Shown here: positions 32,497-56,512 of the stretch, piece after piece | Numbering within the stretch: position 1 is the first letter of the stretch | Layout of the letters: each line of letters starts with the position of its first letter | Assembly (NCBI GenBank): GCA_964387825.1 | Contig: CAYLWZ010000002.1 | Location: 47,375 to 111,374 of the forward strand | Direction: 5' to 3' | Source: an uncultured Candidatus Saccharibacteria bacterium | Lineage (GTDB): Bacteria > Patescibacteriota > Minisyncoccia > Minisyncoccales > GWA2-38-27 | DNA length: 64,000 bases | The notes under the pieces: model-generated | What the model saw: only the letters and a program-made list of their open reading frames with translations | Database searches by the model: none | What the model was told of the DNA's origin: nothing | Position numbers and translations under genes: made by a program

Positions 32497-34005
32497 TTAT
32501 AATACTTTTTCTCCTTCTTCAAGGCCGGAAGTAATCTCAACAAAGTCTTCGCCTTCCAGCCCTGTTTCTATTTCCCGGGGTTTGACTTCGCCATTTTCAT
32601 AAACTCGGACTATTTTTTGCCCGCTCGTCTTTTCTATCAATTCCTTAGGAACGCGCAAAACATTATCTTTTTCAGCGGTTTTTATAATAATGTCGGCCGT
32701 CATACCGGGCTTGATGCCTTCTTTTATTTTCAGAAAATCAATAATCACCTTATAATAAACTACTCCTTCAATTAATTTTTCTGCGGGGTCAATTGAAATG
32801 ACTTTTCCCTCAAAGGCTTGGCCGGGGAAAGGAGTTAAATCAATATTTACCGGATCTCCAATTTTTATTTTAACAATATCTTCCTCGTAAATATTAACTT
32901 CTACTTGAAAAGGAGCAGCCGGAAGAAAAGAAATCACAGAATCGGCCGGTTGAGCCATTTCTCCTTCCCTTTTATTAATATCTGTTATTTGGCCATTTTC
33001 AGGAGCTTTCAAAACTGCTTGGGTAATCTTATTTTCTAAAAGTTTAATTTTGGCCTCGCCTTGCTTTATCTGCGCCCGATATAATCCTTCTCCTTGCAAT
33101 TTATTCTCAAGAGAAGAAATTTCAGCTTGAGCATTATTGATATTCGTTTTATTGGTAATCTTGACCGTTGAAATGTCTTGTTGGGCGTTAACAATATCGG
33201 CAGTAACGTTATTTATATTCGTTCTCTGGGTATCTAAAGACGTCTTATCAGCGCTTGAAACAAGAGCGCGATAAGCTTCACTTTTTGTATCGTCTCGAAT
33301 TACTTCCAAAGAATTGCTTACTGCCTCTAATTGCTCCTTTACTTTAAGAAGAACTGAATCAATATTTTCTTCTTGGGAATTATTTTTAGCGTCGTTAACA
33401 TAGGTTTTAATTCTTTCCAAATCACTTTTGATATTATATTTTTCATTTACCACTTCCGTTGATTTTTCATCAAAAGAAGTAAAATAATCGCGCTGGATTT
33501 TATAAACCACATTATAAGCGTTATATGTTTTTAAGTAAGAATCATCTAAAACAGTAAGAGCGTCGTCATAAGCGTTATCCATGTCTTCGTCCGCTTTAGA
33601 TTTAGCGTCTTCCAAGCTCTGTTCCGCATTTTGGAGAGAAACATCGGCATCCGTATTCTTTGCTTTTGCAACTTCTGAATCGGCTTTTGCTTCATCTAAC
33701 TCAATGTAAAGCTGAGTTGTGTCAAGTTTGGCCAAGAATTGTCCTGTTTCCACATTATCGCCGATATTAACATACATTTCTTTAATTCTTCCTGAATTCT
33801 TAAAACTGAGGTCTCTTTTTTCCGAAACCTTAACCGAACCTGTTTCGGAAACCTCCTGAGTAATCGCGCCCCTGACTACTTTTTGGAAAACAAAATTTGG
33901 CTCTTTGTTCTTAAATAAAAACCAATAAACGCCAAAACTCAAAAGAGCCGTGATTATAATGATGACTGAAATTATTTTTTTGCTCTTCCCGTTAAAAATT
34001 TTCAT
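32497..34005 (-). CDS. efflux periplasmic adaptor (HlyD/MacA-like membrane fusion protein) with long coiled coil
   Basis: N-terminal TM anchor, extended coiled-coil middle, C-terminal beta-barrel motifs. Confidence 0.7.
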   Translation of the reverse strand: MKIFNGKSKKIISVIIIITALLSFGVYWFLFKNKEPNFVFQKVVRGAITQEVSETGSVKVSEKRDLSFKNSGRIKEMYVNIGDNVETGQFLAKLDTTQLYIELDEAKADSEVAKAKNTDADVSLQNAEQSLEDAKSKADEDMDNAYDDALTVLDDSYLKTYNAYNVVYKIQRDYFTSFDEKSTEVVNEKYNIKSDLERIKTYVNDAKNNSQEENIDSVLLKVKEQLEAVSNSLEVIRDDTKSEAYRALVSSADKTSLDTQRTNINNVTADIVNAQQDISTVKITNKTNINNAQAEISSLENKLQGEGLYRAQIKQGEAKIKLLENKITQAVLKAPENGQITDINKREGEMAQPADSVISFLPAAPFQVEVNIYEEDIVKIKIGDPVNIDLTPFPGQAFEGKVISIDPAEKLIEGVVYYKVIIDFLKIKEGIKPGMTADIIIKTAEKDNVLRVPKELIEKTSGQKIVRVYENGEVKPREIETGLEGEDFVEITSGLEEGEKVL

Positions 34006-34157
34006 AAATTTTTACCCATTAGAATACCATAAAAATTTCTAATAGGGCTTATATTTTTATTAATCTGTTATCTTCCATTTTATATTTTTTTTACTAAAAA
34101 AGCAACGAAAAAAATCCCAATTTAAAAATTAGGTCTATTTTTCGCCAAAACCTAAAA

Positions 34158-34436
34158 TTATTTTTTCCTCAACTTGATTGCTTTTCCTTCAATTAAAGCG
34201 CCTGAAACTTTTTTGCGGGCGGAGGTTAAAATTCGCTGAAGAGTACTTTGGGAAATTCCCATTTTTTTAGCCGCTTTTGCTTGCCTCAACTCCTCAAAGT
34301 CGCAAAGCCGCAAGGCCTCCACTTCGTCTATCTTTAAATTTACCTCTTCTAACTCCGAAAGAGGGACTGCTCTTGGTTTGAAATAGGTTACATTAGGCTC
34401 AAAAGAAATTTTTCTTTGTTTGATAGGTTTAGCCAT
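34158..34436 (-). CDS. DUF134-family putative DNA-binding protein
   Basis: …KPRAVPLSELEEVNLKIDEVEALRLCDFEELRQ…MGISQSTLQRILTSARKK DUF134 pattern. Confidence 0.65.
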   Translation of the reverse strand: MAKPIKQRKISFEPNVTYFKPRAVPLSELEEVNLKIDEVEALRLCDFEELRQAKAAKKMGISQSTLQRILTSARKKVSGALIEGKAIKLRKK

Positions 34437-34444
34437 AAAAAGAT

Positions 34445-35443
34445 TTAAGATTCAATAATTAAGAATTTTATCAGTTTTTTAAAAATATTTTTAATCTCAT
34501 TTTTTGCTTTTAAGTTTGTTTCCATAATCGGAGTTAAATTAGATATTGATTTAAAAACATTTTTATCATAAGAGATTCTTCCTAAAAATCTGCCTTTTAC
34601 CTGCCCTGATTTTTTCTGAAGGGCCCATTTTTCTATTTTATCGCTCAATTCAAAATTAATATCATATTTATTTATAACCACGCCCCAGGGAATCTTAAAG
34701 TATTTAACAACTTCTAAAACTCTTTTTAGGTCGGAAAAACCGGAAAAGGTCGGTTCTGTGACCAATAAAGCAAAGTCTGCTCCCTGAAGAGAAGCGATTA
34801 CAGGACAACTCGTTCCCGGCGCCGAATCAATAAGCATTATGTCTCCGTCAAACTCTTCTCCTCGCCGCTTAATCTCAGTAACTATTTTTCCAGAACCTGT
34901 TTCCCCTGGATAAAGCTGTCCGGAAACGAGAAAAAACCCATATTTTGTCTTTTTTGTTCTTATCTCTCCGTTTTTTACTGGTTCCATTTTTATTGCTCCA
35001 GCCGGACAAAAAACTTCGCAAGCCCCGCATCCTTCGCATAAAAAAGGATTTAATTTTAACTTTTTCCCCTCTTGGCGAAGCTCGCCCTTGACGGCCTTTT
35101 CCACACTTAACGCGCCAAATCTGCATTTTTTGGCGCATTCTTCCGCTCTTCCTTCTAATTTGCTGTTGTCAATCACAGGTTTCTCCGAAACGCTTATTTC
35201 AAGAATATATATTTTATTCCTTAACGAATCAAGGTTCTGCGAGCGAAGCGAGCGGGTTCTTATTTTTTTCACTTCTTCCCATCCCCCAATTTCGTTTAAC
35301 CAAACAGCTAAATTAGGAGCGTCAACGTCGCAGTCAATCGCAACGATTCTCTTTTTCTCTTTTGCGAAAATTATCGCCAAGGAAGAAGCCAACATTGATT
35401 TTCCCACTCCCCCTTTTCCGCTGGCAATTACTATTTTTTTCAT
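34445..35443 (-). CDS. MinD/ParA-superfamily P-loop ATPase with inserted 4Fe-4S ferredoxin domain
   Basis: ASGKGGVGKS deviant Walker A; CEGCGACEVFCPAGAI 4Fe-4S motif; DSAPG Walker B region. Confidence 0.75.
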   Translation of the reverse strand: MKKIVIASGKGGVGKSMLASSLAIIFAKEKKRIVAIDCDVDAPNLAVWLNEIGGWEEVKKIRTRSLRSQNLDSLRNKIYILEISVSEKPVIDNSKLEGRAEECAKKCRFGALSVEKAVKGELRQEGKKLKLNPFLCEGCGACEVFCPAGAIKMEPVKNGEIRTKKTKYGFFLVSGQLYPGETGSGKIVTEIKRRGEEFDGDIMLIDSAPGTSCPVIASLQGADFALLVTEPTFSGFSDLKRVLEVVKYFKIPWGVVINKYDINFELSDKIEKWALQKKSGQVKGRFLGRISYDKNVFKSISNLTPIMETNLKAKNEIKNIFKKLIKFLIIES

Positions 35444-35592
35444 TTCTCACTTTGAATTACTAAAAAATTCTCCTTTCTTAACCCGAAAAGACAAATCATT
35501 AATAATTTTCTCACCGTCTAATTCTACATTTAAGTTTTCAACTTTTAAAATTAAATCTTCTGGTATTGCAAAGATAGCTCTAAATTTAATTT

Positions 35593-36147
35593 TTATAATC
35601 CTAATCCATCAGAAATTTTTTGCATCGCACTTAAAGTAATCTCAATAAATTTTTCTAAAGACAGACCTAATAAATTTTCAGATTTTTTTATTATTTCCCT
35701 ATTAGCCCCTCTGGCAAACGCTTTTTCCTTAAAACGCCTTAAAACATTTTCCGTTTTTAAATCGTTTATTTTTTTAGAAGGCAGAACAAGAGTAGCGGCT
35801 ACTATTAAACCGGTTAAAGGGTCAACGCAATATAGCGCCTTTGCCATTTTTGTTTCCGGTTCAATGTTATGAATTTCATTATGAGACAAAACCGCATTAC
35901 ATATCTCTTCGTCAAATCCTAATTTTTTCAACATTTCGGCCCCTACCCTAGAATGCAGTTTGGGATCGCCTTCTACTTTTTCATAATCAATATCGTGCAA
36001 TAAACCGGCAATCCCCCATTTATTTTTGTCTTCATCAAAATATTCGGCAAAATCCCTCATTGCTGCTTCTACGGCTAAACAATGTTTAATGAGATTTTTA
36101 TTTTTAATATTTTCTTTTAATAAATTTAATGCTTCTTCTCTTTTCAT
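35593..36147 (-). CDS. HD-domain phosphohydrolase
   Basis: HCLAVEAAMRDFA … LLHDIDY HD motif. Confidence 0.65.
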   Translation of the reverse strand: MKREEALNLLKENIKNKNLIKHCLAVEAAMRDFAEYFDEDKNKWGIAGLLHDIDYEKVEGDPKLHSRVGAEMLKKLGFDEEICNAVLSHNEIHNIEPETKMAKALYCVDPLTGLIVAATLVLPSKKINDLKTENVLRRFKEKAFARGANREIIKKSENLLGLSLEKFIEITLSAMQKISDGLGL

Positions 36148-36737
36148 TTTATTTTAAATAAAAGCCATTGTTTTCCCCGGCCTTTCCCGCCTGCAACGCT
36201 TTGCGTAGCATTGCGGGCAGGCCCGCCTGCAACGCTTTGCGTAGCATTGCGGGCAGGCATTTTAACTAAGCAATAATTTCCTTTTAATTTTTTACCTTTT
36301 AATCCAAAAATAATCTTATCCTTTGTTTTCTCAACTAATTCGTATTTTCCTTTGTCATAAATCTTGACAATGCCTGCTCCATAATTTCCTTTGGGTATTT
36401 TTCCTTCAAAATTAATATAGCCGATTGGGTGGTCTTCAGTTTGAATCGCCAGATGTTTCACTCCCTTCTTTCCCGGCACTCCTTTCGGCACCGCCCAAGA
36501 TTTTAAAACTCCATCCCCGCCTGCATCGCTATGCGAAGCATTGCGGGCAGGCCCGCCTGCATCGCTATGCGAAGCATTGCGGGCAGGCATTTCTAACCTG
36601 AAATCAAAATGATGCCCCGCTTTCTCAGCAAAATGTTCTTGAACCACAAACCTATTTTCTGAAGTTCTCAAAACCTTACCTTTTGGCTCGGGAGTTTTAT
36701 CAAACTTTCTTTTCTCCCAATATTTTTTTAAGCTCAT
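36144..36737 (-). CDS. LigD-type 3'-phosphoesterase (PE) domain protein carrying two in-frame 2x12-aa repeat insertions
   Basis: KRKFDKTPEP…FVVQEHFAEKAGHHFDFRLE…DGVLKSWAVPKGVP…EDHP…FEG…G matches the LigD PE domain; inserts PARNASHSDAGG x2 and PARNATQSVAGG x2. Confidence 0.65.
   Translation of the reverse strand: MSLKKYWEKRKFDKTPEPKGKVLRTSENRFVVQEHFAEKAGHHFDFRLEMPARNASHSDAGGPARNASHSDAGGDGVLKSWAVPKGVPGKKGVKHLAIQTEDHPIGYINFEGKIPKGNYGAGIVKIYDKGKYELVEKTKDKIIFGLKGKKLKGNYCLVKMPARNATQSVAGGPARNATQSVAGGKGRGKQWLLFKIK
36187..36258. repeat. 2x tandem GC-rich 36-bp element (ccgcctgcaacgctttgcgtagcattgcgggcaggc), in-frame in LigD-PE gene
   Basis: perfect tandem; ~60% GC in a ~33% GC genome; encodes PARNATQSVAGG x2. 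Confidence 0.9.
36517..36588. repeat. 2x tandem GC-rich 36-bp element variant (ccgcctgcatcgctatgcgaagcattgcgggcaggc), in-frame in LigD-PE gene
   Basis: perfect tandem; encodes PARNASHSDAGG x2. Confidence 0.9.
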
Positions 36738-36851
36738 CTCAATTTCTTATCCAATTATTATTTTATCATCTAAATTCTTCAATGATTTAAAAATCTTCTA
36801 ACTATTTTTTTCAAATTGACGATACTTGTCTGGCCTTTGAAATTGCGGTTT

Positions 36852-37382
36852 TTATTCCGGGAGGATGCAAAAAGTATTATTAAAGCGGTTAATATAATTA
36901 AAGAGGCCAACGATTGATATAATTTCAACGATCTCTGGCTCTGAAAAATCTTTTTTCATTTTTCCAAAAAACTCTGGAGTGCAAACATGGGCTTTTAAAG
37001 TTATCTCTTTAACCAATTTCAGTATCTCTTTTTCTTTTTCTGAGAGGTCTTTCGTTTTTTTGACTTTCTTAATTTCCTCGTCCGTAGCCCCCATTTTTTT
37101 TAACATTTTGGAAGTTACATCAACGCAAAAAGGACATCTCAATGTCTCTGAAACTGTATAAGCTATTTTCCATTTTAATAATCTTTCTATTTTCCCCTCG
37201 CCCATAACCGTTTGAAAGAGCTCAAAAAACTCTTTTAATATTTCCGGCCGATGAGCCATTACCTTAACCCATTCAGGCGTTTCTTTCCCTTCTTTCTCAA
37301 ATCCGTCATAAATTTCTTTTGCTATCTCTGAAACTTGATTTTTTTCTAAAGAAGAAATTATGGCCATAATTTTAATTTTCAA
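36852..37382 (-). CDS. carboxymuconolactone decarboxylase (AhpD-like) family protein
   Basis: …TLRCPFCVD… and overall AhpD/CMD-like helical pattern. Confidence 0.55.
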   Translation of the reverse strand: MKIKIMAIISSLEKNQVSEIAKEIYDGFEKEGKETPEWVKVMAHRPEILKEFFELFQTVMGEGKIERLLKWKIAYTVSETLRCPFCVDVTSKMLKKMGATDEEIKKVKKTKDLSEKEKEILKLVKEITLKAHVCTPEFFGKMKKDFSEPEIVEIISIVGLFNYINRFNNTFCILPE

Positions 37383-37468
37383 TCTTTCTTTAATTTTAAT
37401 TGAATAACTTAATTTTTAATCTCCTAATGGATAAAATTTGTCTAAAGATTAAATCGTTTAAAACTCAT

Positions 37469-38353
37469 TCAAAATTGATTCAAAATTGATTCAAAATTAG
37501 AAATTAGTAATTGCATATTTAATAATTGACCTTTTGAATATGCTTCTGCTATTTTTTTTGAATAAGGAATTTCTCCTTCAATTTTTATTCTGAATTTTTT
37601 AGCAATTTTTTGAATCATTTCTTTATTTCCTAAATTTGCCTGGTTTAAAACTATTTTAGCGGGAACTTTAAGTTTTCCGCATAAATCTAAAATTAAATTC
37701 AAATCATAAGCTCCCATTGGAGTTGGTTCGGTAATACAATAAGCAAAATCGCAATCAAGCAAAGCAGAAATTACCGGGCAGTGAGTCCCGGCTGCCGTGT
37801 CAAAAAGGATATAATCTGCTTTCTTTTTCTCGGCAAAGCTCAAAGCAAACTTTTTTGCTTTGGCAACCACCGGACCTGTTTCTTCAATGCCCGAATTGGC
37901 CAAACCGGTAATCAGCCAGAAATTTTCTTTAATTCTACTAGTATAAATTCCCCCGTTTTTTTCTTTTTTTGTTTTAATGGCTCCGAAAGGACAAACAGTC
38001 CAGCAAGCGCCGCAACTTGAACACAGGTTTTTAATAAAAACCGGGTAATCTAAATCCCCGTTTTTATCCCTCGGTTGAAAAATGGCGTTTTGCCGGCAGG
38101 TCTTAACGCAAATTCCGCATTTCTTGCATTTTTTTCTAATTAAAACCGGATATTCGGTAAAAATATTTTTGACAGGTTTTTTAAGTTTTTGATTTAACAA
38201 CAAATAATCATCGGGACATTCAACATCGCAATCGCAAAGAACAACTTTTTTCCCTTCCTTAATTAATTTGAGAGCTGATAAAACCGCGAAAGTGCTTTTT
38301 CCCGTGCCTCCTTTACCGCCTGTAATTCCTATTTTCTTAATTTTCTTCAACAT
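37469..38353 (-). CDS. MinD/ParA-superfamily P-loop ATPase with inserted 2x4Fe-4S ferredoxin domain (paralog of 34445-35443)
   Basis: TGGKGGTGKST; CKKCGICVKTC and CSSCGACWTVCP motifs. Confidence 0.75.
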   Translation of the reverse strand: MLKKIKKIGITGGKGGTGKSTFAVLSALKLIKEGKKVVLCDCDVECPDDYLLLNQKLKKPVKNIFTEYPVLIRKKCKKCGICVKTCRQNAIFQPRDKNGDLDYPVFIKNLCSSCGACWTVCPFGAIKTKKEKNGGIYTSRIKENFWLITGLANSGIEETGPVVAKAKKFALSFAEKKKADYILFDTAAGTHCPVISALLDCDFAYCITEPTPMGAYDLNLILDLCGKLKVPAKIVLNQANLGNKEMIQKIAKKFRIKIEGEIPYSKKIAEAYSKGQLLNMQLLISNFESILNQF

Positions 38354-39602
38354 CTTTTTTCTGTATTTCCTCTAAAACATTATTTATATTTTTTTCTGGA
38401 GCAACAATTTTTATTTCAATGCCGAAATTTTCTAAACTCTTTTTGGCGTTTTCTCCGATTTGCTTGACAAAAATCTCGTCTGCTCTTATTGCTTTGGCAA
38501 ATCTTGAACCATGCGGCAAATTATGCTTGAAATACGGATTCTTAAAAATCTTTTTCAAAAGAATCTCCTCGCCTTTAGTATCAATTACTAAATATTTATC
38601 TGCGCCGAAATCCTGGCTAATTTCATTTTCCTTAAAAGGAATAATTATCCTTTTGCCTTTCTTTTCCGGACCAATCTGCTCAAATCCCTCAAGTTCGCCT
38701 ATTTTTTTACCAAGCTTAGGCAAAATAACACTCCTTGCCATCTGATAGGATTTAATGGAAATAACTATTTGTTTCAATCCAGGAATATTTTTCAGCAATC
38801 TATCTTCTAAAGTATCGGTTATTTTCTGAACATCTCCAACTTTTAATTTGGGCGGAAGTTTAATTTTAATTTCGGCGAAATTAGCCGAGCCAATCTTTCT
38901 GGTTTTTAGCTCAGATATCCCAATTTCATGGCTCCGGCAGATTCTTTTTATTCTCTCTTCAATGTCTTTGTTGGCAACATCTAAAATAGAATCTGTGATT
39001 TCCCTGCCTAATTTAAAAGATTCAAAAAGAATATAACCCCCGATTAAAAAAGCAATTATCCCGTCAATAGGAGCAAAATATCTAATTAAAAAAAGAGAGA
39101 GCAAAACTCCGGCCGAAGACAATACGTCGGCTCTTGAATGCTCAGCATCGGCTATTAAAGACAAGCTTTCATGTTTTTTTCCGTAATAAAATTTTAATCG
39201 AGCCATTAATTCGTTAATGACAATAGTGATAACAACTAAAATTATCGCTCCCAAGCTAAAAAAAGTTTCCTGTGTTTTCCCAAGAAACTTTTCTACAGCT
39301 TCGTATATAATCCAAACACCGGAACCGGCTAAAAAGATTGTTACAAAAAGCCCGGCTAAACTCTCTGCCCGATAATGACCATAAGGATGGTTCTCGTCTA
39401 CCGGCTTTTTAGCGACTTTAATTCCTAAATAAGTCCCGAAAGAAGAAATGATATCTACTCCTGAGTGGACGCCGTCGGCGACTAAAGCCGCGCTTCCAAT
39501 CGTCAATCCAAAAAACAACTTAGAGGCAGATAAACCGAAATTAACAAAAGTGCTTAGAATTGAAACTTTTTCTTGGTTCATATAAATGAGAGTGTTGAAC
39601 AA
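38337..39602 (-). CDS. cation diffusion facilitator (CDF) transporter fused to C-terminal NifX/NifB-like (dinitrogenase FeMo-cofactor family) domain
   Basis: N-terminal CDF TM core (…HPYGHYRAESLAG…); C-terminal …KRIIIPFKENEI…DFGADKYLVIDTKGEEI… NifX-like fold pattern. Confidence 0.6.
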   Translation of the reverse strand: MFNTLIYMNQEKVSILSTFVNFGLSASKLFFGLTIGSAALVADGVHSGVDIISSFGTYLGIKVAKKPVDENHPYGHYRAESLAGLFVTIFLAGSGVWIIYEAVEKFLGKTQETFFSLGAIILVVITIVINELMARLKFYYGKKHESLSLIADAEHSRADVLSSAGVLLSLFLIRYFAPIDGIIAFLIGGYILFESFKLGREITDSILDVANKDIEERIKRICRSHEIGISELKTRKIGSANFAEIKIKLPPKLKVGDVQKITDTLEDRLLKNIPGLKQIVISIKSYQMARSVILPKLGKKIGELEGFEQIGPEKKGKRIIIPFKENEISQDFGADKYLVIDTKGEEILLKKIFKNPYFKHNLPHGSRFAKAIRADEIFVKQIGENAKKSLENFGIEIKIVAPEKNINNVLEEIQKKDVEEN

Positions 39603-39651
39603 TATCCTCTATACTAAGACGCATATTATTCAACGCTCTCATAAATCTAAT

Positions 39652-40074
39652 TTATCTTCTTCTGCCTTGACCTAAACCTCTGCCACGGCCTAAACCTCTG
39701 CCTTGGCCGGAAACTCCAAAACCTGCCCCGACAGATTGGGTTATTTCTGGCAGTTGACTTTGTTTAAAAGCGGATAAGGCGTCTTTTATTTTCATCCCCG
39801 ACATTGCCTTAAAAATCCTTATTCCTGAACTATTTAAAACCTCAAAAGAATTAGGGCCGACATTGCCAGTAATCACTACCTCTGCTTTCTGGTCAACAAC
39901 GGCCTGAGCAGATTGAACTCCTGCTCCCCTCGCCGCGTCTATCCCTTTATTAGGAAAAGCATTTATTTCTTCCAAATTTCCATCATCAACAAAAATAAAA
40001 TAAAGGCACCTGCCAAAACGCGGGTCTATTAAAGAATCTAAATTAGGACCTGAACTGGTAACACAAATACGCAT
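39652..40074 (-). CDS. NifX/NifB-like (dinitrogenase iron-molybdenum cofactor family) protein with Gly/Arg-rich tail
   Basis: MRICVTSSGPNLDSLIDPRFGRCLYFIFVD…VVITGNVGPNSFEVLNSSGIRIF… pattern; C-terminal GRGLGRGRGLGQGRRR. Confidence 0.65.
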   Translation of the reverse strand: MRICVTSSGPNLDSLIDPRFGRCLYFIFVDDGNLEEINAFPNKGIDAARGAGVQSAQAVVDQKAEVVITGNVGPNSFEVLNSSGIRIFKAMSGMKIKDALSAFKQSQLPEITQSVGAGFGVSGQGRGLGRGRGLGQGRRR

Positions 40075-40101
40075 AACTTAAAAAGTCGAGATTTGTCGAG
40101 A

Positions 40102-40326
40102 TTATTTTTCTCTTATCATCTGACTACCGCATTTCGGGCATTTTTCTTCATAACAAGGAACTCCTGTTTTATGGGGAGTTGTTGTTCCGCATTTAGGGCA
40201 AACACATTCGCCTCCTCCTCCCAAACCAAAACCGCCGGGTTGGCGACTTCGGCCGATTCCTCTGCCTAATCCTCGACCCGCGTCCCTGCCTCCGCCGACA
40301 GGTCCTGTTCCGTTTCCAAATGGCAT
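40102..40326 (-). CDS. DUF5320-family protein with C-terminal Cys4 ribbon
   Basis: [13 protein letters not shown]… (cf. DUF5320 MPRGDGTGPMG) plus CPKCG…CPKCG. Confidence 0.55.
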
Positions 40327-40364
40327 AATTTTATTGTTTTATGATTTTCTTTACAACGACCTTT

Positions 40365-40706
40365 TTACTTTTTCTTTTTTGTTTCCAATTCCTGAATTCT
40401 TTTCTCAATGGTTTTCATGCTGTCCTTTAAGTAATTTAATTCCTCATTTAGTATCTCTTTCTCCTCTTTTTCTGTCATCTGCGGCTCTGTTTGAGGATAA
40501 TACCCATAACCGGCGCGTCCCCAATCATACCGACCCATTCCTCTGCCATAACCTCTGTCATATCCAAAACCTCTCCCCCAGCCAAAATTTCTTCTGCCAA
40601 AACCTTGTTTTACGTAACCGGGAGAAGAATAACCGGCGCAACGGCCCAATCCTCTTCCGGTCATCGGGCCTGTTCCCATAGGCCCTGTTCCGTTTCCAAA
40701 TGGCAT
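40365..40706 (-). CDS. DUF5320-family protein with Gly/Arg/Tyr-rich middle and coiled-coil C-terminus
   Basis: [23 protein letters not shown]…; paralog of 40102-40326. Confidence 0.55.
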   Translation of the reverse strand: MPFGNGTGPMGTGPMTGRGLGRCAGYSSPGYVKQGFGRRNFGWGRGFGYDRGYGRGMGRYDWGRAGYGYYPQTEPQMTEKEEKEILNEELNYLKDSMKTIEKRIQELETKKKK

Positions 40707-40959
40707 GATAATTTGTTTATTAATTATTACTTTATTAATTTTAACATTAAATCGACCTTTAGAATAGCTTTAGAGCACAGGATTCGAATCCCGCAGTCTT
40801 TAACCTTGATTGCAAACACTAACTGTTATGAGTATATACCCATAACCATCGCTTGTCAACTCTCGTTTTCAATAAGGGAAGGGGCGGGAATTATAATCAA
40901 AAAAACCGAGGAATAAATCCCAGCTTTAATTTTTTTTAATCAATTGTTTTAGTTTTCGC

Positions 40960-41673
40960 CTATCCTCTCATTTGGCAATCATCAAAAAAAGGCGAGATTT
41001 TCTTGACAATAGTTAAGATATATTCGTCGGGATAGGGTTTCAGTTTTTCAAATTCAGGGGCAAGGGTTTTCCCGGAACCAAATTGCTGTAAATAATATTT
41101 TTCTCCCTTTTCTTTCCCGCCGGAAGAAATCCAAGCGGCAATTTTCAAAATATCTTTTTCGGTTAACAAGGTAGGCACAACTGTCGTCCGAAATTCATAA
41201 CCTACTTTATTCTTTTTTAAAAAAGCGACGCTTTTTTCAATTTTCCCGATATCTATCTTTCTTCCAATCATTTTTTGGTATTTCTCTTTCGGCGCTTTAA
41301 TATCCATCGCTACATAATCAATTAATTTTTTGTCAATTAAATTCTTCAGCGCGTCTGGATTTGAACCGTTAGTGTCTAATTTTACCGCATAGCCAAGGTT
41401 TTTAATCCTTCTGGCAAATTTTTCTAAATCTTTGTTAACAGTCGGTTCGCCGCCACACAAAACACATCCTTCCAGCAAATTTTTTCTTTCACTTAAAAAT
41501 TTAAAAAATTCCTTCTCTGATATTTTTGGCTGAATTTTAATCCTCTCGGGCAGAACAAGCTCTGGAGAATGGCACCAAGGACAACAAAAATTACATCCTG
41601 TTAAAAAAACTGTGCAAGCAAGTTTGTCCGGAAAATCAATCAAAGTCAATTTTTCTAATCCGCCGATAACCAT
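40960..41673 (-). CDS. nrdG: anaerobic ribonucleoside-triphosphate reductase activating protein NrdG (radical SAM)
   Basis: CNFCCPWCHSP radical-SAM cluster motif and NrdG-like length; start likely MVIGG (41673); track ORF extends upstream. Confidence 0.75.
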   Translation of the reverse strand: MVIGGLEKLTLIDFPDKLACTVFLTGCNFCCPWCHSPELVLPERIKIQPKISEKEFFKFLSERKNLLEGCVLCGGEPTVNKDLEKFARRIKNLGYAVKLDTNGSNPDALKNLIDKKLIDYVAMDIKAPKEKYQKMIGRKIDIGKIEKSVAFLKKNKVGYEFRTTVVPTLLTEKDILKIAAWISSGGKEKGEKYYLQQFGSGKTLAPEFEKLKPYPDEYILTIVKKISPFFDDCQMRG

Positions 41674-41680
41674 ACAAAAA

Positions 41681-43831
41681 TCACTTTTTCTCCAGTACTT
41701 TAAATTCTTTCCGTTCTTTGTATTCTTCCTGTTTTCCGACATTCCATTGGGTCACCGGACGAAGATACCCGACAACTCTTGAGTAAACTTCGCAGGGTTG
41801 CTTAATAGTGCATTTTGGGCAGTAAAAATGCTCTCCCGACAAATAGCCATGAACAGGACAAATGGAAAAAGTGGGAGTTAAAGTAATATAAGGAAGACGA
41901 AATTTCTCAAAAATCTTTTTAATCAGGATTTTAGAAGTCTGGATATCAGAAATTTTTTCTCCTAAGAAGAGATGTAAAACACTACCCCCTGTGTACTTGC
42001 ATTGAATTTCATCTTGGAGTTTTAAAGCCTCAAAGGCGTCATTGGTAAATCCGACCGGAAGCTGGGAGGAATTAGTATAATAGGGATTTTCTTTTGTCCC
42101 GGCAGTGACAATGTCTGGATATCTTTCTTTGTCTTGCAGAGCCAAACGGTAACTTGTGCTCTCGGCCGGTGTTTGTTCTAAATTGTAGATATTTCCAGTG
42201 TCTTCTTGGTATTTAACTAATTTCTCTCTCATAAAATCCATTATTTCTAAGGTAAATTTTCGTCCCCGAAGCGAGGCGATGTTTTCTCCTAAAAAATTCA
42301 AAAGGCTTTCATTTATTCCTAACGGTCCGATAGTGGAAAAATGATTAGCGAAATACTTCCCCCGCATTTTCTTTACTCCGGATAAATAAAATTTAGAATA
42401 AGGATAAAGTCCTTTCTCAATGAAATTTTCCAACACTTTTCTTTTTATTTCTAAACTTTCTTCCGCTAAATCCATTAATTTGCCTAATCTCTCAAAAAAT
42501 TCCTTTTTTGTCTTTGATAGATAGCCAATACGAGGAAGGTCAATCGTTACCACACCGATACTTCCAGTTAGAGCCCCGGAGCCGAAAAGTCCTCCGCCGC
42601 CTCTATTCTCAAGTTTTGTCAAATCGATCCGAAGTCTGCAACACATTGACCTTACATCTTCTGGTTTCATTTCAGAATTAATATAATTGGCGAAATAGTT
42701 TATTCCGTATTTTGCCGAGGCTCGAAAAATTCCATCAAAAACTGGGTCATCCCAAGGGAAATCTTTTGTAATATTGATTGTTGGAATGGGAAAGGTAAAC
42801 GGCCTCCCGGATTTATCGCCTTCTAAATAAACTTCGTATAAAGCCTTGTTAAAAATTTTCATTTCTTCCTCAAATTCTCCATAAGATTCTTTTTGGGGCT
42901 TCCCGCCGATTATTATCGGCATTTTAGCGAAAACAGGAGAAGGTTTTAAGTCAAGAGTAATATTAGAAAATGGCGTTTGGAAGCCTACTCGAGTAGGCAC
43001 CGCCATATTAAATAAAAATTCCTGTAATGATTGTTTTACCTGCTGATAATTTAAGTTGTCATAGCGAATAAAAGGCGCTAAAAGAGTGTCAAAGTTCGAA
43101 AAAGCAACCGCCCCGGCCGCTTCCCCTTGAAGAGTATAAAGGAAATTTACCATTTGGCCCAAAGCGGCCCGAAAGTGTTTTGCCGGCTTTGATTCAACTT
43201 TTCCAGACACGCCGCCGAATCCTTTTAATAAAAGATCGTATAAATCCCAGCCACAGCAATAAGTGGCTAAAGCATCCAAATTATGAATATGAAAATCGCC
43301 ATTCTCATTGGCTTCTCTAATCTCTTTAGGGTATATTTTGTTCAACCAATATTTTTTAATAGCATAGGTAGTCGTATAATGATTTAATCCCTGCAAAGAA
43401 AAAGCCATATTGGCGTTTTCTTTAACTTCCCAATCCAGTTTTTCTAAATATTGGTCAACTCTGTCAACTGCTTCTTCGGAGGTCTTCACCGCTTCCCTAA
43501 TCCTCCTTCTTTGCTCCCGATACAAAATAAAGGCCTTAGCAGTTTCTACCAGACCTTCTAAAATTAAAACTTCTTCAACAATGTCCTGAATTTGTTCAAC
43601 GGTAGGAATTTCTTCTTTCTTAAATCTCCTATTTAAAATTTGGACTACTCTGTTAGAAAGTTTTTTTGACTTTTTTCCATCGCCCTGTTCAACCGAAGTT
43701 ACGGCTTTAAAAATCGCTTCGCTAATTTTACCTTCTTCAAAATCTACAACTTGACCATTTCTTTTTTTTACTTTGCTTAACTTTTTCTTAGAAGATGCCT
43801 GAGAATAAGTTTTCGTAATGTTATTTTTCAT
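41681..43831 (-). CDS. nrdD: anaerobic ribonucleoside-triphosphate reductase NrdD (class III)
   Basis: N-terminal ATP-cone, C-terminal Cys4 site (CPVHGYLSGEHFYCPKC) and glycyl-radical loop RVVGYL. Confidence 0.85.
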   Translation of the reverse strand: MKNNITKTYSQASSKKKLSKVKKRNGQVVDFEEGKISEAIFKAVTSVEQGDGKKSKKLSNRVVQILNRRFKKEEIPTVEQIQDIVEEVLILEGLVETAKAFILYREQRRRIREAVKTSEEAVDRVDQYLEKLDWEVKENANMAFSLQGLNHYTTTYAIKKYWLNKIYPKEIREANENGDFHIHNLDALATYCCGWDLYDLLLKGFGGVSGKVESKPAKHFRAALGQMVNFLYTLQGEAAGAVAFSNFDTLLAPFIRYDNLNYQQVKQSLQEFLFNMAVPTRVGFQTPFSNITLDLKPSPVFAKMPIIIGGKPQKESYGEFEEEMKIFNKALYEVYLEGDKSGRPFTFPIPTINITKDFPWDDPVFDGIFRASAKYGINYFANYINSEMKPEDVRSMCCRLRIDLTKLENRGGGGLFGSGALTGSIGVVTIDLPRIGYLSKTKKEFFERLGKLMDLAEESLEIKRKVLENFIEKGLYPYSKFYLSGVKKMRGKYFANHFSTIGPLGINESLLNFLGENIASLRGRKFTLEIMDFMREKLVKYQEDTGNIYNLEQTPAESTSYRLALQDKERYPDIVTAGTKENPYYTNSSQLPVGFTNDAFEALKLQDEIQCKYTGGSVLHLFLGEKISDIQTSKILIKKIFEKFRLPYITLTPTFSICPVHGYLSGEHFYCPKCTIKQPCEVYSRVVGYLRPVTQWNVGKQEEYKERKEFKVLEKK

Positions 43832-50253: not shown

Positions 50254-51075
50254 TTATTTTTTCTCTAATCTTTCAATAATTTTTTTTACATCGTTAAAAG
50301 CTCTACTTTTATCTGGGAAATTCCTTTCTAATCCTGATTCTATTATTTTGGAATCGCATTGAACTGTGCCAATAATTTTACTTTTCAATTTCCCCAATTT
50401 ATTTATCATCTGGGATTCTATTTCTTTTGACTTAATTTTGTTTAAGGCCAACCAAAAATTTTTCATTTTCATATCACTACAAAAATCATTTACTCTTTTA
50501 GCAATTGAAATAGACTCAAGGGTAGGGTCGAGAATAAGCAAAACGATATCCACGTTTTCTGATATTCTCCTTCCAAAATGTTCAACTCCGGCCTTGGCGT
50601 CAATAAGATTTACGTAATCTCCTTTTACTATAAAATCCCTAACTACTTTTTCTACTGGTCCATCGCAACCTTGACCATATTTTTTAATCTTCCCTGCCTG
50701 AAATAAAATTATTCGTTTCCTTTTAACAAAATATTTATCTGGAATCTCTTTAAAAATATCTATCTTTTTTTCAGGCACGGGGATAGAATCGTTCAATCTA
50801 GTAAGCGGAGAGGGATCGTCTACGGGACAGGTAACCACCTTAGTTCCACCAAAAAAATCTATCAAGGCTTTTGGAAAGTCCTTTTCTTTTTTTAATCCGA
50901 GCATCAATCCGGAGAGTCCCCGAGGATTAGAGGCATCACCGTCTAAGGCAAGAACCTTGTATCCTTTTTCCTTTAATACATTTGAGATTAAAGTAACCAG
51001 AGTACTTTTTCCGCTTCCTCCTTTTCCAGAAATTAATATTCTCATTCCTTTTAGTTTTTTGTTTGTTTTTGGCAT
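50254..51075 (-). CDS. MinD/CooC-family P-loop ATPase (metallocentre maturation-like)
   Basis: ISGKGGSGKST deviant Walker A; CooC/Mrp-like length. Confidence 0.65.
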   Translation of the reverse strand: MPKTNKKLKGMRILISGKGGSGKSTLVTLISNVLKEKGYKVLALDGDASNPRGLSGLMLGLKKEKDFPKALIDFFGGTKVVTCPVDDPSPLTRLNDSIPVPEKKIDIFKEIPDKYFVKRKRIILFQAGKIKKYGQGCDGPVEKVVRDFIVKGDYVNLIDAKAGVEHFGRRISENVDIVLLILDPTLESISIAKRVNDFCSDMKMKNFWLALNKIKSKEIESQMINKLGKLKSKIIGTVQCDSKIIESGLERNFPDKSRAFNDVKKIIERLEKK

Positions 51076-51094
51076 TTTAACGTTTTGACAATTT

Positions 51095-51655
51095 TTATTT
51101 TAATATTATTCCTTTTCTTTCTTCCTTATTGTATTCCTCTACTATCTCGTTTACATTTTCCTTGATTATTCCAATTGCATCTTTGATTAAAGGTTCCCTT
51201 ATAATTACGGGAACAAATTTAGTTTTCATCCGAACAATATTTGGACCAATCATTTTTCCTATAATTACATTAACATTTTTCAGGACAGATGAAACTGCTT
51301 TTGCTTTTTCAGGATCTCCATGGATCCTAGATTCGTCTTCTTTATACTTAGTGTTTTCTCTTTTCTCTTGAAAAACTAAGTTTCCATTTGAGTATTCCCA
51401 TATTGAATAATATTTAGACATTCCGACATGGTCGTCTGGCTTTATTCTTTTACCATCGTCGGTTCCGATAGCAAATATTAATTTTTGCCCGATATCTTTT
51501 ATCGCGTCCTGGGGACAACCTTTTATAGCATTTCTTAAGCAGTCAGCTTTTTTGTCTTTTATTCTCGCCATCCCGTTTACTAGTTCTATCCCCTCCGGAC
51601 ATATTCTTGCGCAGATCCCGCATCCTATACATTTATTTTTACTTATATTTATCAT
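51095..51655 (-). CDS. 4Fe-4S ferredoxin domain fused to NifX/NifB-like domain
   Basis: CIGCGICARICPEG…C…CPQDAI then FAIGTDDGKRI…VIIGKMIGPN… NifX-like pattern. Confidence 0.6.
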   Translation of the reverse strand: MINISKNKCIGCGICARICPEGIELVNGMARIKDKKADCLRNAIKGCPQDAIKDIGQKLIFAIGTDDGKRIKPDDHVGMSKYYSIWEYSNGNLVFQEKRENTKYKEDESRIHGDPEKAKAVSSVLKNVNVIIGKMIGPNIVRMKTKFVPVIIREPLIKDAIGIIKENVNEIVEEYNKEERKGIILK

Positions 51656-51679
51656 TTTTTTTATTTAGTTGAATAATGG

Positions 51680-56511: not shown

Positions 56512-56512
56512 A

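Follow-up and report, generated by a model that had tools for sequence, protein, structure and literature searches.

The gene cluster at positions 34158 to 40706 of the window (the whole stretch of DNA analysed, 64,000 nucleotides long) is tentatively interpreted here as a CPR/Asgard form of the modules of ORP/IssA type by which anaerobes handle metal sulfide, and the module probably sequesters or detoxifies iron sulfide. It is distinguished by a CDF metal transporter whose C-terminus is a genuine PF02579 domain, and by strict linkage of its genes across genomes.

Gene content of the cluster

All of the genes listed below are encoded on the minus strand. The open reading frames and families named in an earlier note on this DNA were all recovered with matches to the expected families, but three genes had been omitted from its list (AhpD/CMD-like, LigD 3'-phosphoesterase and HD).

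40831..40859, minus strand: sigma-70-type promoter-like site TTGACA-17-TATACT (consensus match only)
40826..40845, no strand: 20-bp palindrome TTATGGGTATATACTCATAA overlapping the -10 box, candidate operator (by conservation)
40365..40706, minus strand: DUF5320 protein, 113 aa (PF17253, 99.7 bits)
40102..40326, minus strand: small Gly/Arg-rich protein, 74 aa, with Cys-rich end (DUF5320, 17.9 bits; cut-off 27)
39652..40074, minus strand: stand-alone PF02579 protein, 140 aa, with cationic Gly/Arg tail (Nitro_FeMo-Co, 65.4 bits)
38337..39581, minus strand: CDF transporter::PF02579 fusion, 414 aa from ATG (Cation_efflux, ZT_dimer, Nitro_FeMo-Co)
38343..38654, minus strand: PF02579-like domain of the fusion, residues about 310-413 (profile and model)
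37469..38353, minus strand: MinD/ParA-type P-loop ATPase with inserted 2x[4Fe-4S] ferredoxin, Orp3/Orp4-like (CbiA, ParA, Fer4)
36852..37382, minus strand: AhpD/CMD-like protein, 176 aa (PF02627, 40.8 bits; TIGR01926, 62 bits)
36144-36737, minus strand: LigD 3'-phosphoesterase, interloper (family match)
35593-36147, minus strand: HD/HDIG hydrolase, interloper (family match)
34445..35443, minus strand: second MinD/ParA-type ATPase (CbiA/ParA P-loop) with Fer4 insert (family match and motifs)
34158..34436, minus strand: DUF134 helix-turn-helix protein, 92 aa (PF02001, 95.9 bits; sigma-70 region-4-like HTH)
51095-51655, minus strand: Fer4+PF02579 protein at a second site (29.2 bits)
50254-51075, minus strand: 273-aa MinD/ParA-type P-loop protein at the second site (weak MinD/ParA matches)

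We tentatively regard the cluster as one operon with three interloper genes in a small-genome, Parcubacteria-type host. The AhpD/CMD-like gene is an optional but frequent passenger, lying inside the cluster in about half of relatives at a variable position. Only the window and its nearest relative (L004) have the LigD and HD pair here; most relatives have neither gene at this place, and the two are not considered part of the system. One further locus (L016) has an HD gene between its two ATPase genes.

Linkage across genomes

The earlier note had made linkage in related genomes a test of the cluster's significance, and in 21 Patescibacteria genomes the genes keep the order DUF5320, small Cys protein, NifX-like protein, CDF::NifX fusion, MinD-Fd, a variable stretch, MinD-Fd and DUF134. 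Of the 20 Patescibacteria loci that could be assessed, 19 have a MinD-Fd gene directly downstream of the fusion, and in 18 of 19 the fusion is preceded by the NifX-like gene; the gene for the 74-aa protein was found in 16 of 21 loci (genome contigs). DUF134 is the final gene of the cluster in relatives and is paired with the second MinD-Fd gene in 10 of 21 loci, most other contigs ending before that point. By contrast, no core partner gene accompanied any of 57 ordinary CDF loci from other phyla. A Wukongarchaeota (Asgard) genome has the complete module with its fusion, and DUF5320 stands beside PF02579 and paired MinD-Fd genes in all four distant taxa considered (clostridial, Lokiarchaeota, Chthonomonadales and Planctomycetes genomes).

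A CDF transporter fused to a PF02579 domain

The fusion more likely starts at ATG 39581 than at TTG 39602 (which would add 7 residues), in agreement with a 100%-identical database protein (P0001). The reading frame (38337-39602) matched Cation_efflux (161.9 bits), ZT_dimer (37.1 bits), Nitro_FeMo-Co at residues 325-415 and TIGR01297 (218.9 bits), and its closest named CDF models were MamM, FieF and MamB (130-138 bits vs 62 bits for ZitB). It matched YiiP at 1e-13, and its AlphaFold model shows an extra alpha/beta domain in addition to six TM helices and a C-terminal domain. The transport site (H39, D43, H148 and D152) is intact, and sites A and B are conserved. A His-Asp/His-Asp arrangement is typical of zinc-selective CDFs; since the fusion has it, Zn2+ is a possible substrate.

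That the C-terminus belongs to the NifX/PF02579 family, as previously proposed, was confirmed by four independent tests, even though its own score of 24.4 bits is under the Pfam gathering score of 26.3. A profile-profile comparison matched it to the neighbouring NifX-like family with 96% probability (E 3.8e-9), the structures found when PDB sequences were searched with a profile were all PF02579 members (1eo1, 1o13, 2yx6 and 1t3v), the confident alpha/beta domain at residues 310-413 of the AlphaFold model superposed on PH0822 (2yx6; TM 0.74, rmsd 2.6 A), and all ten divergent fusion relatives gave 35-70 bits on PF02579. The domain also matched the Fe-S-binding "Di-Nase" end of MrpORP. It is a genuine PF02579 (NifX/MTH1175-like) domain, with 27 positions invariant across relatives of 48-68% identity, in an architecture shared by 24 or more clusters at 50% identity, Asgard archaea among them. 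K27, R31, R80 and K83 are invariant, K63 and R86 nearly so (alignment A1 numbering), whereas the alignment of relatives contains no conserved Cys or His ligand, so any cluster bound by this domain would be held non-covalently. The topology of CDF transporters is established from the YiiP/FieF structures, and because the extra domain follows the cytoplasmic C-terminal domain in that topology, it is predicted to face the cytoplasm, the placement that the earlier note had proposed to check by structure prediction.

An IssA-like carrier and its Gly/Arg-rich neighbours

The stand-alone protein with a Gly/Arg tail (GAGFGVSGQGRGLGRGRGLGQGRRR) was likewise borne out as a PF02579 member. The label "NifX-like" holds at the superfamily level only, as among solved structures its best matches are MTH1175 (2.5e-27) and the orange protein (ORP) of D. 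gigas (2wfb, 1.2e-25) and not NifX, NafY or NifB. Published IssA-like proteins are defined by a pI of at least 9, fewer than 5 Cys and at least 20% Gly in the last 40 residues (PMC5524996, supplement); the carrier here has a pI of 9.69, 2 Cys and 28% Gly, and 65 of its best 120 homologues fall within the same limits. On inspection, about 15 of 17 orthologues retain a tail of this character. By its sequence, then, the protein is an IssA/IssX-like, orange-protein-like carrier of the same architecture as IssA, although its tail is about 35 residues long and nearly without aromatics, whereas that of IssA has 70 residues (21% Gly, 10% cationic, 20% aromatic, pI 10.7) and holds the sole Cys of the protein.

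The function of these families had been described as unknown, but two relatives have been studied experimentally, the Desulfovibrio ORP complex (PMC6345978, PMC8359166) and Pyrococcus IssA (PMC5524996). IssA is an iron-sulfur storage protein that can rebuild the ferredoxin cluster in vitro (PMC5524996). A role in detoxifying iron sulfide has been proposed for it (PMC8219758); its function is debated, and cells lacking it still produce thioferrate-like iron (PMC8219758). Sulfur jointly induces, in Palaeococcus, SipA/IssA, another PF02579 gene and two "CobQ with Fe-S domain" genes (PMC6981617). In MrpORP, the P-loop domain passes clusters to apo-targets and the PF02579 domain binds an Fe-S cluster (PMC6345978); according to references given in that paper, orange-protein clusters are non-covalent and may contain Fe, Co, Ni, Cu or Cd.

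Of the two small proteins previously assigned to DUF5320, the 113-aa one clearly belongs, while the 74-aa one shares the MPFGNGTGP start but scores below the cut-off. The 113-aa protein has the conserved motif MPxGDGTGPxGxGPxTGRGLGxC, including Cys23 (9 invariant columns), and is predicted to combine a disordered, Gly/Arg/aromatic-rich N-terminal region (AlphaFold pLDDT <50 for residues 1-70) with a C-terminal helix (79-112, pLDDT >90). N-terminal regions across the family (median 68 aa, 33% Gly, 12% R/K, 16% aromatic, pI 10.5, one Cys) are similar in chemistry to the IssA tail, low-complexity composition being weak evidence for shared function. At the end of the 74-aa protein, 17 of 17 orthologues share C41, C43, C46, H52, C58, C63 and C66, suggesting a putative metal-binding 6-Cys and His motif. 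Natural fusions of PF02579 exist not only with CDF but also with DUF5320 (P0401, P0410, P0442 and P0469) and DUF134 (P0314), and one DUF134::PF02579 fusion adjoins Nramp and a DtxR-type repressor.

Paired ATPases and a second site

As the earlier note had it, both MinD/ParA-type ATPases carry embedded 4Fe-4S ferredoxin domains, and as two ferredoxin-bearing paralogs they resemble Orp3/Orp4 (PMC6345978). The first, whose gene shares 17 nt with the end of the CDF gene, has a deviant Walker A and two conserved full CxxCxxCxxxC motifs; the second has one full CxxCxxCxxxC and a CxxxC, with 8 Cys conserved. At the second site (50254..51655), which adjoins an Mbh/Mrp-like complex, the reported Fd-NifX fusion was found, but the putative CooC-like ATPase gave weak MinD/ParA matches and no CooC-specific match. 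One control CDF locus (L047) matches the Fd-NifX protein of this site.

A candidate regulator and operator

The cluster is preceded by an NrdG-like gene and then a 253-nt gap holding the promoter-like site, whose match to the consensus (11 of 12 positions) is the best within 33900-41100; TTGACA recurs in the upstream regions of most relatives. The palindrome is unique within the 64-kb window (0.02 matches expected), and one copy lies upstream of the cluster's first gene in 20 of 20 distinct Patescibacteria relatives whose contigs extend that far. One of these is L015, in which it directly precedes a lone CDF::NifX gene. Of 65 other loci (827 kb) only 3 had matches, all weak with 3-4 mismatches. 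A predicted sigma-70-type promoter whose -10 box is covered by the conserved palindrome may thus drive the operon, a proposal that shares the tentative standing of the overall interpretation. The DUF134 protein, confirmed as such, is the presumed regulator and may bind the palindrome. The second site would lie outside this control, because the window has no further copy of the palindrome.

Proposed function and alternatives

An iron sulfide module of the ORP/IssA type, coupled to Fe2+/Zn2+ efflux, is the best reading of these data, although we place it somewhat below an even chance. From the parts above we infer its ligand, metal, mechanism, direction of coupling and regulator-operator pairing as follows. 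The Gly/Arg-tailed PF02579 protein would bind anionic iron-sulfide species as IssA does, either thioferrate-like polymers or labile Fe-S clusters, and the two Gly/Arg/aromatic-rich small proteins, one with a coiled-coil helix (DUF5320) and the other with a 6-Cys and His knuckle, would serve as separate tails of IssA type, wrapping and neutralising this material. The two MinD-type [4Fe-4S] ATPases, probably a heterodimer, would spend ATP and electrons to load, unload or hand on iron-sulfur material. The FieF/MamM-like CDF antiporter would export divalent metal, Fe2+ being the likeliest and Zn2+ the alternative, and its Cys-free, Lys/Arg-lined cytoplasmic PF02579 domain may dock or sense the same ligand, which would couple efflux to the load of iron sulfide in the cytosol. 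The DUF134 protein would repress the operon at the palindrome until a ligand signal is received. The metal-cluster assembly or trafficking pathway suggested earlier is a possible inference, but sequestration or detoxification of iron sulfide with metal efflux fits at least equally well.

Unlikely in our estimation is a dedicated Fe-S carrier or maturation line without storage, in which MinD-Fd and PF02579 proteins are Mrp/NBP35-type deliverers of [4Fe-4S] to client enzymes (candidates being radical-SAM NrdG, 2-oxoacid:ferredoxin oxidoreductase and the Mbh-like complex) and the CDF fusion balances free metal. Cluster transfer by MrpORP, ferredoxin rebuilding by IssA, the many Fe-S enzymes of the window and its second PF02579/P-loop/DUF59-like group (49570-51655) are consistent with such a line, as are NrdD and NrdG directly upstream in the window, L004 and L009. 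However, these are the only 3 of 21 related loci with that neighbourhood, and with about 50-56 bits on the Mrp/ApbC and MrpORP models, for which the cut-off is 450, the MinD-Fd proteins fall well short. The line also leaves the cationic disordered proteins and the efflux transporter without a role, and the PF02579 domain of the fusion has no cysteine ligands.

In Desulfovibrio, ORP proteins have a putative role in cell division, loss of OrpR causes morphological defects and MrpORP is polar (PMC6345978, PMC8359166). The ORP complex has been tied to cell morphology and not to iron storage, unlike the role proposed here, and a complex for division or positioning whose metal centres are redox sensors of anaerobiosis is conceivable but rather improbable. 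The ATPases do fall in the MinD/ParA superfamily, yet MinD family models gave 33-58 bits against cut-offs above 200, and no linked division genes were found in Patescibacteria or the four distant-taxa loci examined. The fused metal transporter, the IssA-like tails and DUF134::PF02579 beside Nramp and DtxR would be left unexplained.

Less probable still is the handling or detoxification of molybdenum/tungsten-copper sulfide, with PF02579 proteins binding thiomolybdate or thiotungstate metal clusters that would arise spontaneously in sulfidic cells and the transporter removing the partner cation. Orange protein holds a non-covalent [S2MoS2CuS2MoS2] cluster, the physiological relevance of which is uncertain. 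The stand-alone carrier is equally close to orange protein and MTH1175, and the non-covalent clusters referenced for orange protein would suit the Cys-free, Lys/Arg-lined domain. Nonetheless, no molybdate/tungstate transport or molybdopterin genes were linked at any locus examined, and CDF proteins are established carriers of divalent cations, not of Cu(I), oxyanions or thioanions.

An ordinary zinc/iron efflux pump beside unrelated genes, its extra domain a decorative or degenerate appendage, might be read from the sub-threshold PF02579 match and missing metal-ligand residues, but it is already contradicted by the invariant positions and confident fold of the domain, the breadth of the architecture, the near-universal partner synteny absent from control CDF loci and the operator retained by the lone gene of L015, and is highly improbable.

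Gene content of the cluster

The window is AT-rich (GC of about 35%) and carries nearly all of its genes on the minus strand, among them those of the cluster at 34158-40706, which are given here in order of transcription.

40365-40706, minus strand, DUF5320 protein of 113 aa, first
40102-40326, minus strand, Gly/Arg-rich protein of 74 aa, second
39652-40074, minus strand, PF02579 protein of 140 aa with a Gly/Arg tail (the stand-alone carrier), third
38337-39581/39602, minus strand, CDF transporter with a C-terminal extension (the fusion), fourth
37469-38353, minus strand, MinD/ParA-type ATPase with two ferredoxin motifs (MinD-Fd), fifth
36852-37382, minus strand, AhpD/CMD-like protein, sixth
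36144-36737, minus strand, LigD 3'-phosphoesterase, seventh
35593-36147, minus strand, HD hydrolase, eighth
34445-35443, minus strand, second ferredoxin-bearing MinD-type ATPase, ninth
34158-34436, minus strand, DUF134 helix-turn-helix protein, last

Every gene named in an earlier note, written by a model from the sequence alone, is present, but that note lacked three genes, namely the AhpD/CMD-like, LigD 3'-phosphoesterase, and HD genes. The transporter has its close relatives in Parcubacteria/Patescibacteria genomes (Nealsonbacteria, Portnoybacteria), which places the window in a CPR bacterium. The DUF134 protein scored 95.9 bits against PF02001 (cut-off 27), also matched Sigma70_r4 and r4_2, and is predicted to carry a helix-turn-helix of the sigma-70 region-4 type. 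MinD models scored 33-58 bits on the two ferredoxin-bearing ATPases (cut-offs >200), and no equivalog-level MinD or CooC match was found for either of these or for a 273-aa protein at 50254-51075; all three are thus assigned, from sequence, to the MinD/ParA superfamily only.

Repeats were observed in two parts of the window. A GC-rich 36-bp element, CCTGCCCGCAATGCTWCGCAWAGCGWTGCAGGCGGG, occurs as two perfect tandem doublets (36186-36257 and 36516-36587) in frame within the LigD 3'-phosphoesterase ORF, where the doublets encode PARNASHSDAGG twice and PARNATQSVAGG twice, and as a single copy with two mismatches between ORFs (29270-29305); no copy is expected in the window by chance. LigD_N orthologues at two related loci (L004 and L020) are ~30-50 aa shorter, lengths that fit absence of the inserts, and the element looks like a small mobile or REP-like repeat tolerated within coding sequence. 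Tandem arrays with a 7-bp period are numerous at ~100-18600 (for example, 3789-3854, 4648-4738, 8103-8153, and 10852-10948), with units that include TCTTAAA, AATTAAG, CTTATAA, GTTTTAA, and TAACTTG, and most of those in the first 18 kb sit in gaps separating larger ORFs.

A CDF transporter fused to a PF02579-type domain

The CDF part of the fusion was recovered by PF01545 (161.9 bits, cut-off 26.6), TIGR01297 (218.9 bits, cut-off 82.35), and ZT_dimer (37.1 bits). An AlphaFold model of the full-length protein (pLDDT 78.7) has six long transmembrane helices and a CDF C-terminal domain (residues 205-276), joined through a linker modeled at low confidence (284-296) to a confidently predicted alpha/beta domain (310-413). 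The earlier note had read the end of this protein as NifX/NifB-like, and PF02579 scored 24.4 bits there, just below its gathering threshold of 26.3; about 40% of the fusion's close relatives carry the PF02579 flag in a precomputed table. Four tests settled this sub-threshold score and bore out the reading at the family level. First, hhalign of 19 orthologous C-terminal regions against a profile of the neighboring stand-alone PF02579 family gave a probability of 96% (E 3.8e-9). Second, the C-terminal profile retrieved only PF02579 structures from PDB sequences, namely MTH1175 (1eo1), 1o13, PH0822 (2yx6), and 1t3v. Third, Foldseek placed the front part of the model with YiiP structures (E 1e-13) and its end with PH0822/2yx6 (TM 0.74, rmsd 2.6 A). 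Fourth, a profile search of 1.84 billion representatives returned 109 relatives, including 24 proteins of 376-430 aa matched C-terminally; ten of these divergent fusions were scanned, all of which carried Cation_efflux and PF02579 (35-70 bits), and nine ZT_dimer as well. By profile homology and predicted fold (MTH1175/NifX-like), the C-terminal end is therefore a PF02579-type domain. In solved YiiP/FieF structures the CDF C-terminal domain lies in the cytoplasm, and the PF02579-type domain that comes after it is therefore predicted to be cytoplasmic too, the placement that the earlier note had asked about.

The fusion resembles FieF/YiiP and MamM/MamB in its six-helix CDF core, its TM2/TM5 site, its TM2-TM3 loop site, and its cytoplasmic dimerization domain. 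The transport site, H39, D43, H148, and D152 on TM2 and TM5, aligns with FieF D45, D49, H153, and D157 and is invariant or near-invariant among 70 sequences, and the loop site (D62/H65/H69) is also retained. Unlike those transporters, the fusion has an extra cytoplasmic domain of ~105 residues after the C-terminal domain, its site A is His-Asp/His-Asp rather than Asp-Asp/His-Asp, and the binuclear-site histidines of the C-terminal domain are lost, with C215 and H218 invariant instead. The extra domain has no conserved Cys, but Lys/Arg residues that are invariant or near-invariant. Zinc transporters usually have a His-Asp/His-Asp site. For metal specificity and the putative metal/proton antiport, sequence similarity favors the FieF/MamM group: the highest-scoring named models were MamM, FieF, and MamB (130-138 bits), with ZitB at 62 bits. 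As all of these scores lie far under the equivalog cut-offs, the fusion represents a separate subfamily.

Conservation of gene linkage

A scan of one genome per species found a full-length fusion, 56-76% identical, at 21 Patescibacteria loci. The control set consists of 57 ordinary CDF loci in other phyla, whose similarity to the fusion stops at residue ~290. Upstream of the fusion, 18 of 19 loci have a stand-alone PF02579 gene, and MinD-Fd comes directly after the fusion in 19 of 20 assessable Patescibacteria loci, while the 74-aa gene was found in 16 of the 21, and the second ATPase and DUF134 end the cluster in relatives wherever contigs extend far enough. No core partner gene lay within 8 kb of any control CDF locus (0/57), although one control locus, L047, matches the ferredoxin-PF02579 protein of a second site in the window. 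The linkage on which the earlier note had staked the cluster's significance is thus kept at nearly all assessable Patescibacteria loci and absent from the 57 controls. Few CDF transporters are otherwise found in CPR genomes (PMC6744442).

Not all genes of the cluster share this conservation. The CMD gene is a frequent passenger among relatives, and HD and LigD_N were rejected as members of the system, since the pair occurs only in the window and its nearest relative, with HD alone at a further locus (L016). A functional tie to anaerobic ribonucleotide reductase was dropped, as only 3 of 21 related loci have NrdD/NrdG upstream of it. In the window, the NrdG-like ORF (40960-41742) as listed overlaps the end of NrdD by 62 nt (41681-41742); its match starts at residue 24 in one relative, so the true start is probably further downstream.

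The association reaches much wider than CPR. DUF5320 adjoins genes for PF02579 proteins and ferredoxin-bearing CbiA/ParA ATPases in genomes of Petrocella (Clostridia), Lokiarchaeota, Chthonomonadales, and Planctomycetes, with DUF134 carried as well at the Planctomycetes locus. Asgard archaea (Hodarchaeota, Wukongarchaeota) are among the carriers of divergent CDF::PF02579 fusions, and one Wukongarchaeota locus (L088 5217-10678, GCA_030587675.2) has the order DUF134 / DUF5320 - CDF::PF02579 - PF02579 - MinD-Fd - MinD-Fd - ... - PF02579, which is the same module as that in the window, fusion included. This occurrence raises the question of an ancient module versus exchange between CPR bacteria and Asgard archaea. 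A ZIP-family metal importer gene sits no more than a few kb from the module in Nealsonbacteria (L001 19379-20471), at a locus that also has a rubrerythrin/EncFtn-like gene, and in Lokiarchaeota (L083 2008-2964); these neighbors may be coincidental or may belong to a wider metal-homeostasis neighborhood.

The stand-alone carrier and its Gly/Arg-rich partners

The 140-aa carrier (PF02579, 65.4 bits) has a pI of 9.69, two Cys residues, and 28% Gly in its last 40 residues, and falls within the operational definition of IssA-like proteins published by Vaccaro et al. 2017 (IPR003731, pI of at least 9, fewer than five Cys, and at least 20% Gly in the last 40 residues), as do 65 of its best 120 homologues. 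Its tail varies in sequence across orthologues and is constant in character; at ~35 residues with one Phe, it falls short of the further criterion of a long (~70-residue), aromatic-rich tail. Among solved structures, the carrier profile matched the orange protein (2wfb, 1.2e-25), and its closest match was MTH1175. Outside CPR, the PF02579 proteins of the module are acidic and tail-less, with DUF5320 adjoining.

Two proteins had been described in the earlier note as DUF5320. The 113-aa protein is one (PF17253, 99.7 bits, cut-off 27, model positions 1-99), whereas the 74-aa protein scored 17.9 bits against the same cut-off, over its N-terminal half only. The latter starts with a Gly/Arg region like that of DUF5320 and ends in C-x-C-x2-C-x5-H-x5-C-x4-C-x2-C, and because this end motif is invariant in 17/17 orthologues, the protein appears to be a small metalloprotein rather than a true DUF5320 member. 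Across 109 members of the DUF5320 family, the N-terminal region has a median of 68 residues, with 33% Gly, 12% Arg/Lys, 2% acidic and 16% aromatic residues, a pI of 10.5, and one Cys, and is followed by an acidic helix; AlphaFold predicted residues 1-70 of DUF5320 as disordered and 79-112 as one confident helix. No functional information was found in the literature mentioning DUF134 or DUF5320.

In Pyrococcus furiosus, IssA combines a PF02579 domain with a disordered, cationic, Gly/aromatic-rich tail of 70 residues (21% Gly, 10% cationic, 20% aromatic, pI 10.7, and the only Cys of the protein), stores iron and sulfur as anionic thioferrate, and has been proposed to wrap this polymer electrostatically with its tail (PMC5524996). 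Later work suggested that it detoxifies iron sulfide (PMC8219758). The carrier resembles the IssA (SipA, PF2025)/"IssX" clade in its N-terminal PF02579/IPR003731 domain and disordered, cationic, Gly-rich tail, as well as in its closest solved structure, MTH1175, which the IssA authors term "IssA-type" (a proxy for clade membership). It differs from IssA in its short tail with nearly no aromatics, the aromatic Gly/Arg repeats being found on the separate, adjoining DUF5320 proteins, and in the setting of its gene, among ATPase, transporter, and regulator genes of a kind not reported around IssA. Four carrier homologues (P0401, P0410, P0442, and P0469; 176-199 aa) have PF02579 and DUF5320 in one chain. 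Their layout is PF02579, a Gly/Arg/Met-rich stretch, and the DUF5320 coiled-coil helix, and their length is near that of P. furiosus IssA (179 aa). Composition, gene order, and fusions are most simply read to mean that DUF5320 would provide, in trans, the function that IssA has in cis in its own tail.

Comparisons were also drawn with the nitrogenase-associated carriers and FmpB. The cluster shares with NifX, NafY, and NifB the PF02579/IPR003731 superfamily, whose members there bind complex metal-sulfur clusters non-covalently or by few ligands. However, the structures matched here were MTH1175, the orange protein, and TM and PH proteins, with no NifX, NafY, or NifB chain among the PDB matches of the fusion and carrier profiles, and neither nitrogenase families nor linked nif genes were found among 34 ORFs scanned at 32.5-57.5 kb or in related loci. 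The label "NifX-like" used in the earlier note is therefore sound for the superfamily, but not for NifX/NafY/NifB proper. FmpB, from the magnetosome island of Desulfovibrio magneticus RS-1, has a NifX/NifB domain in an iron-biomineral context dependent on CDF transporters and is a literature example of PF02579 joined to a module of another kind (PMC4287615). Its partner domains are magnetochrome and PDZ, and its known homology is limited to the PF02579 domain.

A candidate promoter and operator

The 253-nt gap before the first gene contains the best promoter-like match of the region, TTGACA-17-TATACT, the predicted -10 box of which falls within a 20-bp palindrome, TTATGGGTATATACTCATAA. This palindrome occurs once in the 64-kb window (0.02 matches expected), and each of the 20 distinct Patescibacteria relatives with a long enough contig has one copy ahead of its first cluster gene, although the intergenic sequence around it is not conserved among them. 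In L015, the only genome with the fusion gene on its own, it stands directly in front of that gene, while a mismatch scan of 65 other loci (827 kb) found matches in three, all weak (3-4 mismatches). Its position over the -10 box suggests a repressor operator, and the DUF134 protein is the obvious candidate to bind it, a pairing that we infer. An Rfam scan of the whole window detected one tRNA only, with no known RNA element in the ~110-nt leader of the operon.

A second site beside a membrane complex

Further along the window lies a second group of genes related to those of the cluster.

49570-57555, Mbh/Mrp-type membrane complex and associated group, with NuoD-, NuoC-, NuoB-, NuoH-, antiporter-, MnhB-, and MbhE-like subunits

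After the complex come a Fer4+PF02579 protein, a plain MinD/ParA-type ATPase, a 2x[4Fe-4S] ferredoxin, a DUF59/FeS_assembly_P protein, and a metallo-beta-lactamase-fold protein. The ferredoxin-NifX fusion reported here earlier is present in this stretch, but the label "CooC-like" given to the 273-aa ATPase (50254-51075) finds no support, as no CooC model was among its matches and MinD models reached only 41-42 bits. Co-regulation of this site (50254-51655) with the operon was rejected, since the palindrome has no second copy in the window. The group could be a second, separately regulated set for metal-center maturation.

Possible function of the module

Iron is the favored metal. Counted against it is the His-Asp/His-Asp transport site, and in its favor are the nearness of the transporter to the MamM/FieF/MamB models (130-138 bits) and its distance from ZitB (62 bits). 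It is also favored by P0314 (L089 6001-6627), a single DUF134::PF02579 protein adjoined by an Nramp transporter and a DtxR-type iron repressor (7418-9060); 21 nt upstream of its start is a weak AT-rich palindrome, four mismatches from the operator candidate of the window. The increase of IssA-clade proteins in pyrite-grown Methanococcus likewise argues for iron. So does Palaeococcus, where SipA/IssA, a second PF02579 gene, and two genes for "CobQ with iron-sulfur domain" are among the most sulfur-induced (PMC6981617).

We tentatively propose, just short of regarding it as probable, a four-part account in which the PF02579 proteins and their Gly/Arg-rich partners would sequester anionic iron-sulfide species, the ferredoxin-bearing ATPases would load or unload these, the CDF transporter would export divalent metal under the control of its own extra domain, and DUF134 would repress the operon at the palindrome. 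In a bolder version, the module would assemble and maintain an iron-sulfide (thioferrate-like) particle tethered to the membrane. The particle would be nucleated by PF02579 domains, DUF5320 proteins would act as the detached "tails" of a split IssA wrapping the anionic polymer, the ferredoxin-bearing MinD-type ATPases would load and unload it, the CDF::PF02579 fusion would anchor it to the membrane and vent Fe2+, and DUF134 would sense loaded carrier; that all of these steps hold jointly is unlikely.

Of the experimentally studied systems, two come close to the module, IssA and the ORP complex of Desulfovibrio vulgaris.

In the ORP complex, the paralogues Orp3 and Orp4 have two [4Fe-4S] motifs, and the orange protein, Orp8, carries a Mo-Cu-sulfide cluster bound non-covalently. 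Orp9/MrpORP joins an Mrp/NBP35 ATPase to an Fe-S-cluster-binding PF02579 "Di-Nase" domain, and the function of the whole is still termed unclear (PMC6345978, PMC8359166). Both systems occur in anaerobes and have a pair of paralogous MinD-type ATPases that bear ferredoxin [4Fe-4S] motifs (Orp3/Orp4 compared by description), a small PF02579 protein (that of the cluster homologous to the orange protein), and a PF02579 "Di-Nase" domain fused to a larger functional protein, and the end of the fusion matches the Di-Nase end of the MrpORP model. In ORP, however, this domain is on the Mrp/NBP35 ATPase and not on a membrane CDF transporter, and control is by sigma-54/OrpR/IHF over two divergent operons, in contrast to the one operon here with its predicted sigma-70-type promoter, palindrome, and DUF134; DUF5320 and the Cys-rich Gly/Arg protein are integral members only here. 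The MrpORP model NF041136 reached 25-56 bits on the cluster (cut-off 450), and neither an Mrp/NBP35::PF02579 gene nor a sigma-54 activator was found in it.

Other readings compete with the four-part account. A pure Fe-S delivery line for client enzymes is a rather doubtful alternative, and an ORP-type role in division or positioning is distinctly unlikely. Mo/W-Cu sulfide handling, to which the orange-protein homology could point, is more improbable still. A plain efflux pump with chance neighbors is contradicted by the conservation data and scarcely credible.

Significance

PF02579 and MinD-ferredoxin clusters and IssA are already known, and the module is hence no new kind of system. Four features appear to be undescribed in the literature searched: the place of the CDF::PF02579 fusion as a conserved, integral part of the module, in CPR bacteria as in Asgard archaea, the evidence linking DUF5320 and DUF134 to the carrier domain, the parallel between DUF5320 and the IssA tail, and the operator candidate. 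Anaerobes widely carry PF02579 and MinD-ferredoxin clusters, and even for ORP, the best studied of them, no function has been agreed on; hardly anything has been published on DUF134 and DUF5320. The locus offers concrete handles: the transporter joined physically to a carrier domain, which points to divalent-metal homeostasis, the natural fusions in which the carrier domain is tied to DUF5320 or DUF134, the chemical likeness of DUF5320 to the thioferrate-binding IssA tail, and the 20-bp operator candidate. As the proteins of the module are all small and expressible, the question of what ORP-type clusters do becomes directly testable. A tethered particle, if real, would be an unrecognized iron-sulfur biomineral storage and detoxification apparatus common to CPR bacteria and Asgard archaea; DUF5320 and DUF134 would thereby gain their first functions, and a function would be suggested for the ORP complex as well. 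CPR genomes are very small and contain few CDF transporters. That the eight-gene module has been retained in them, and that it also occurs in Asgard archaea, speaks for its importance to life in habitats that are reduced, sulfidic, and iron-bearing.
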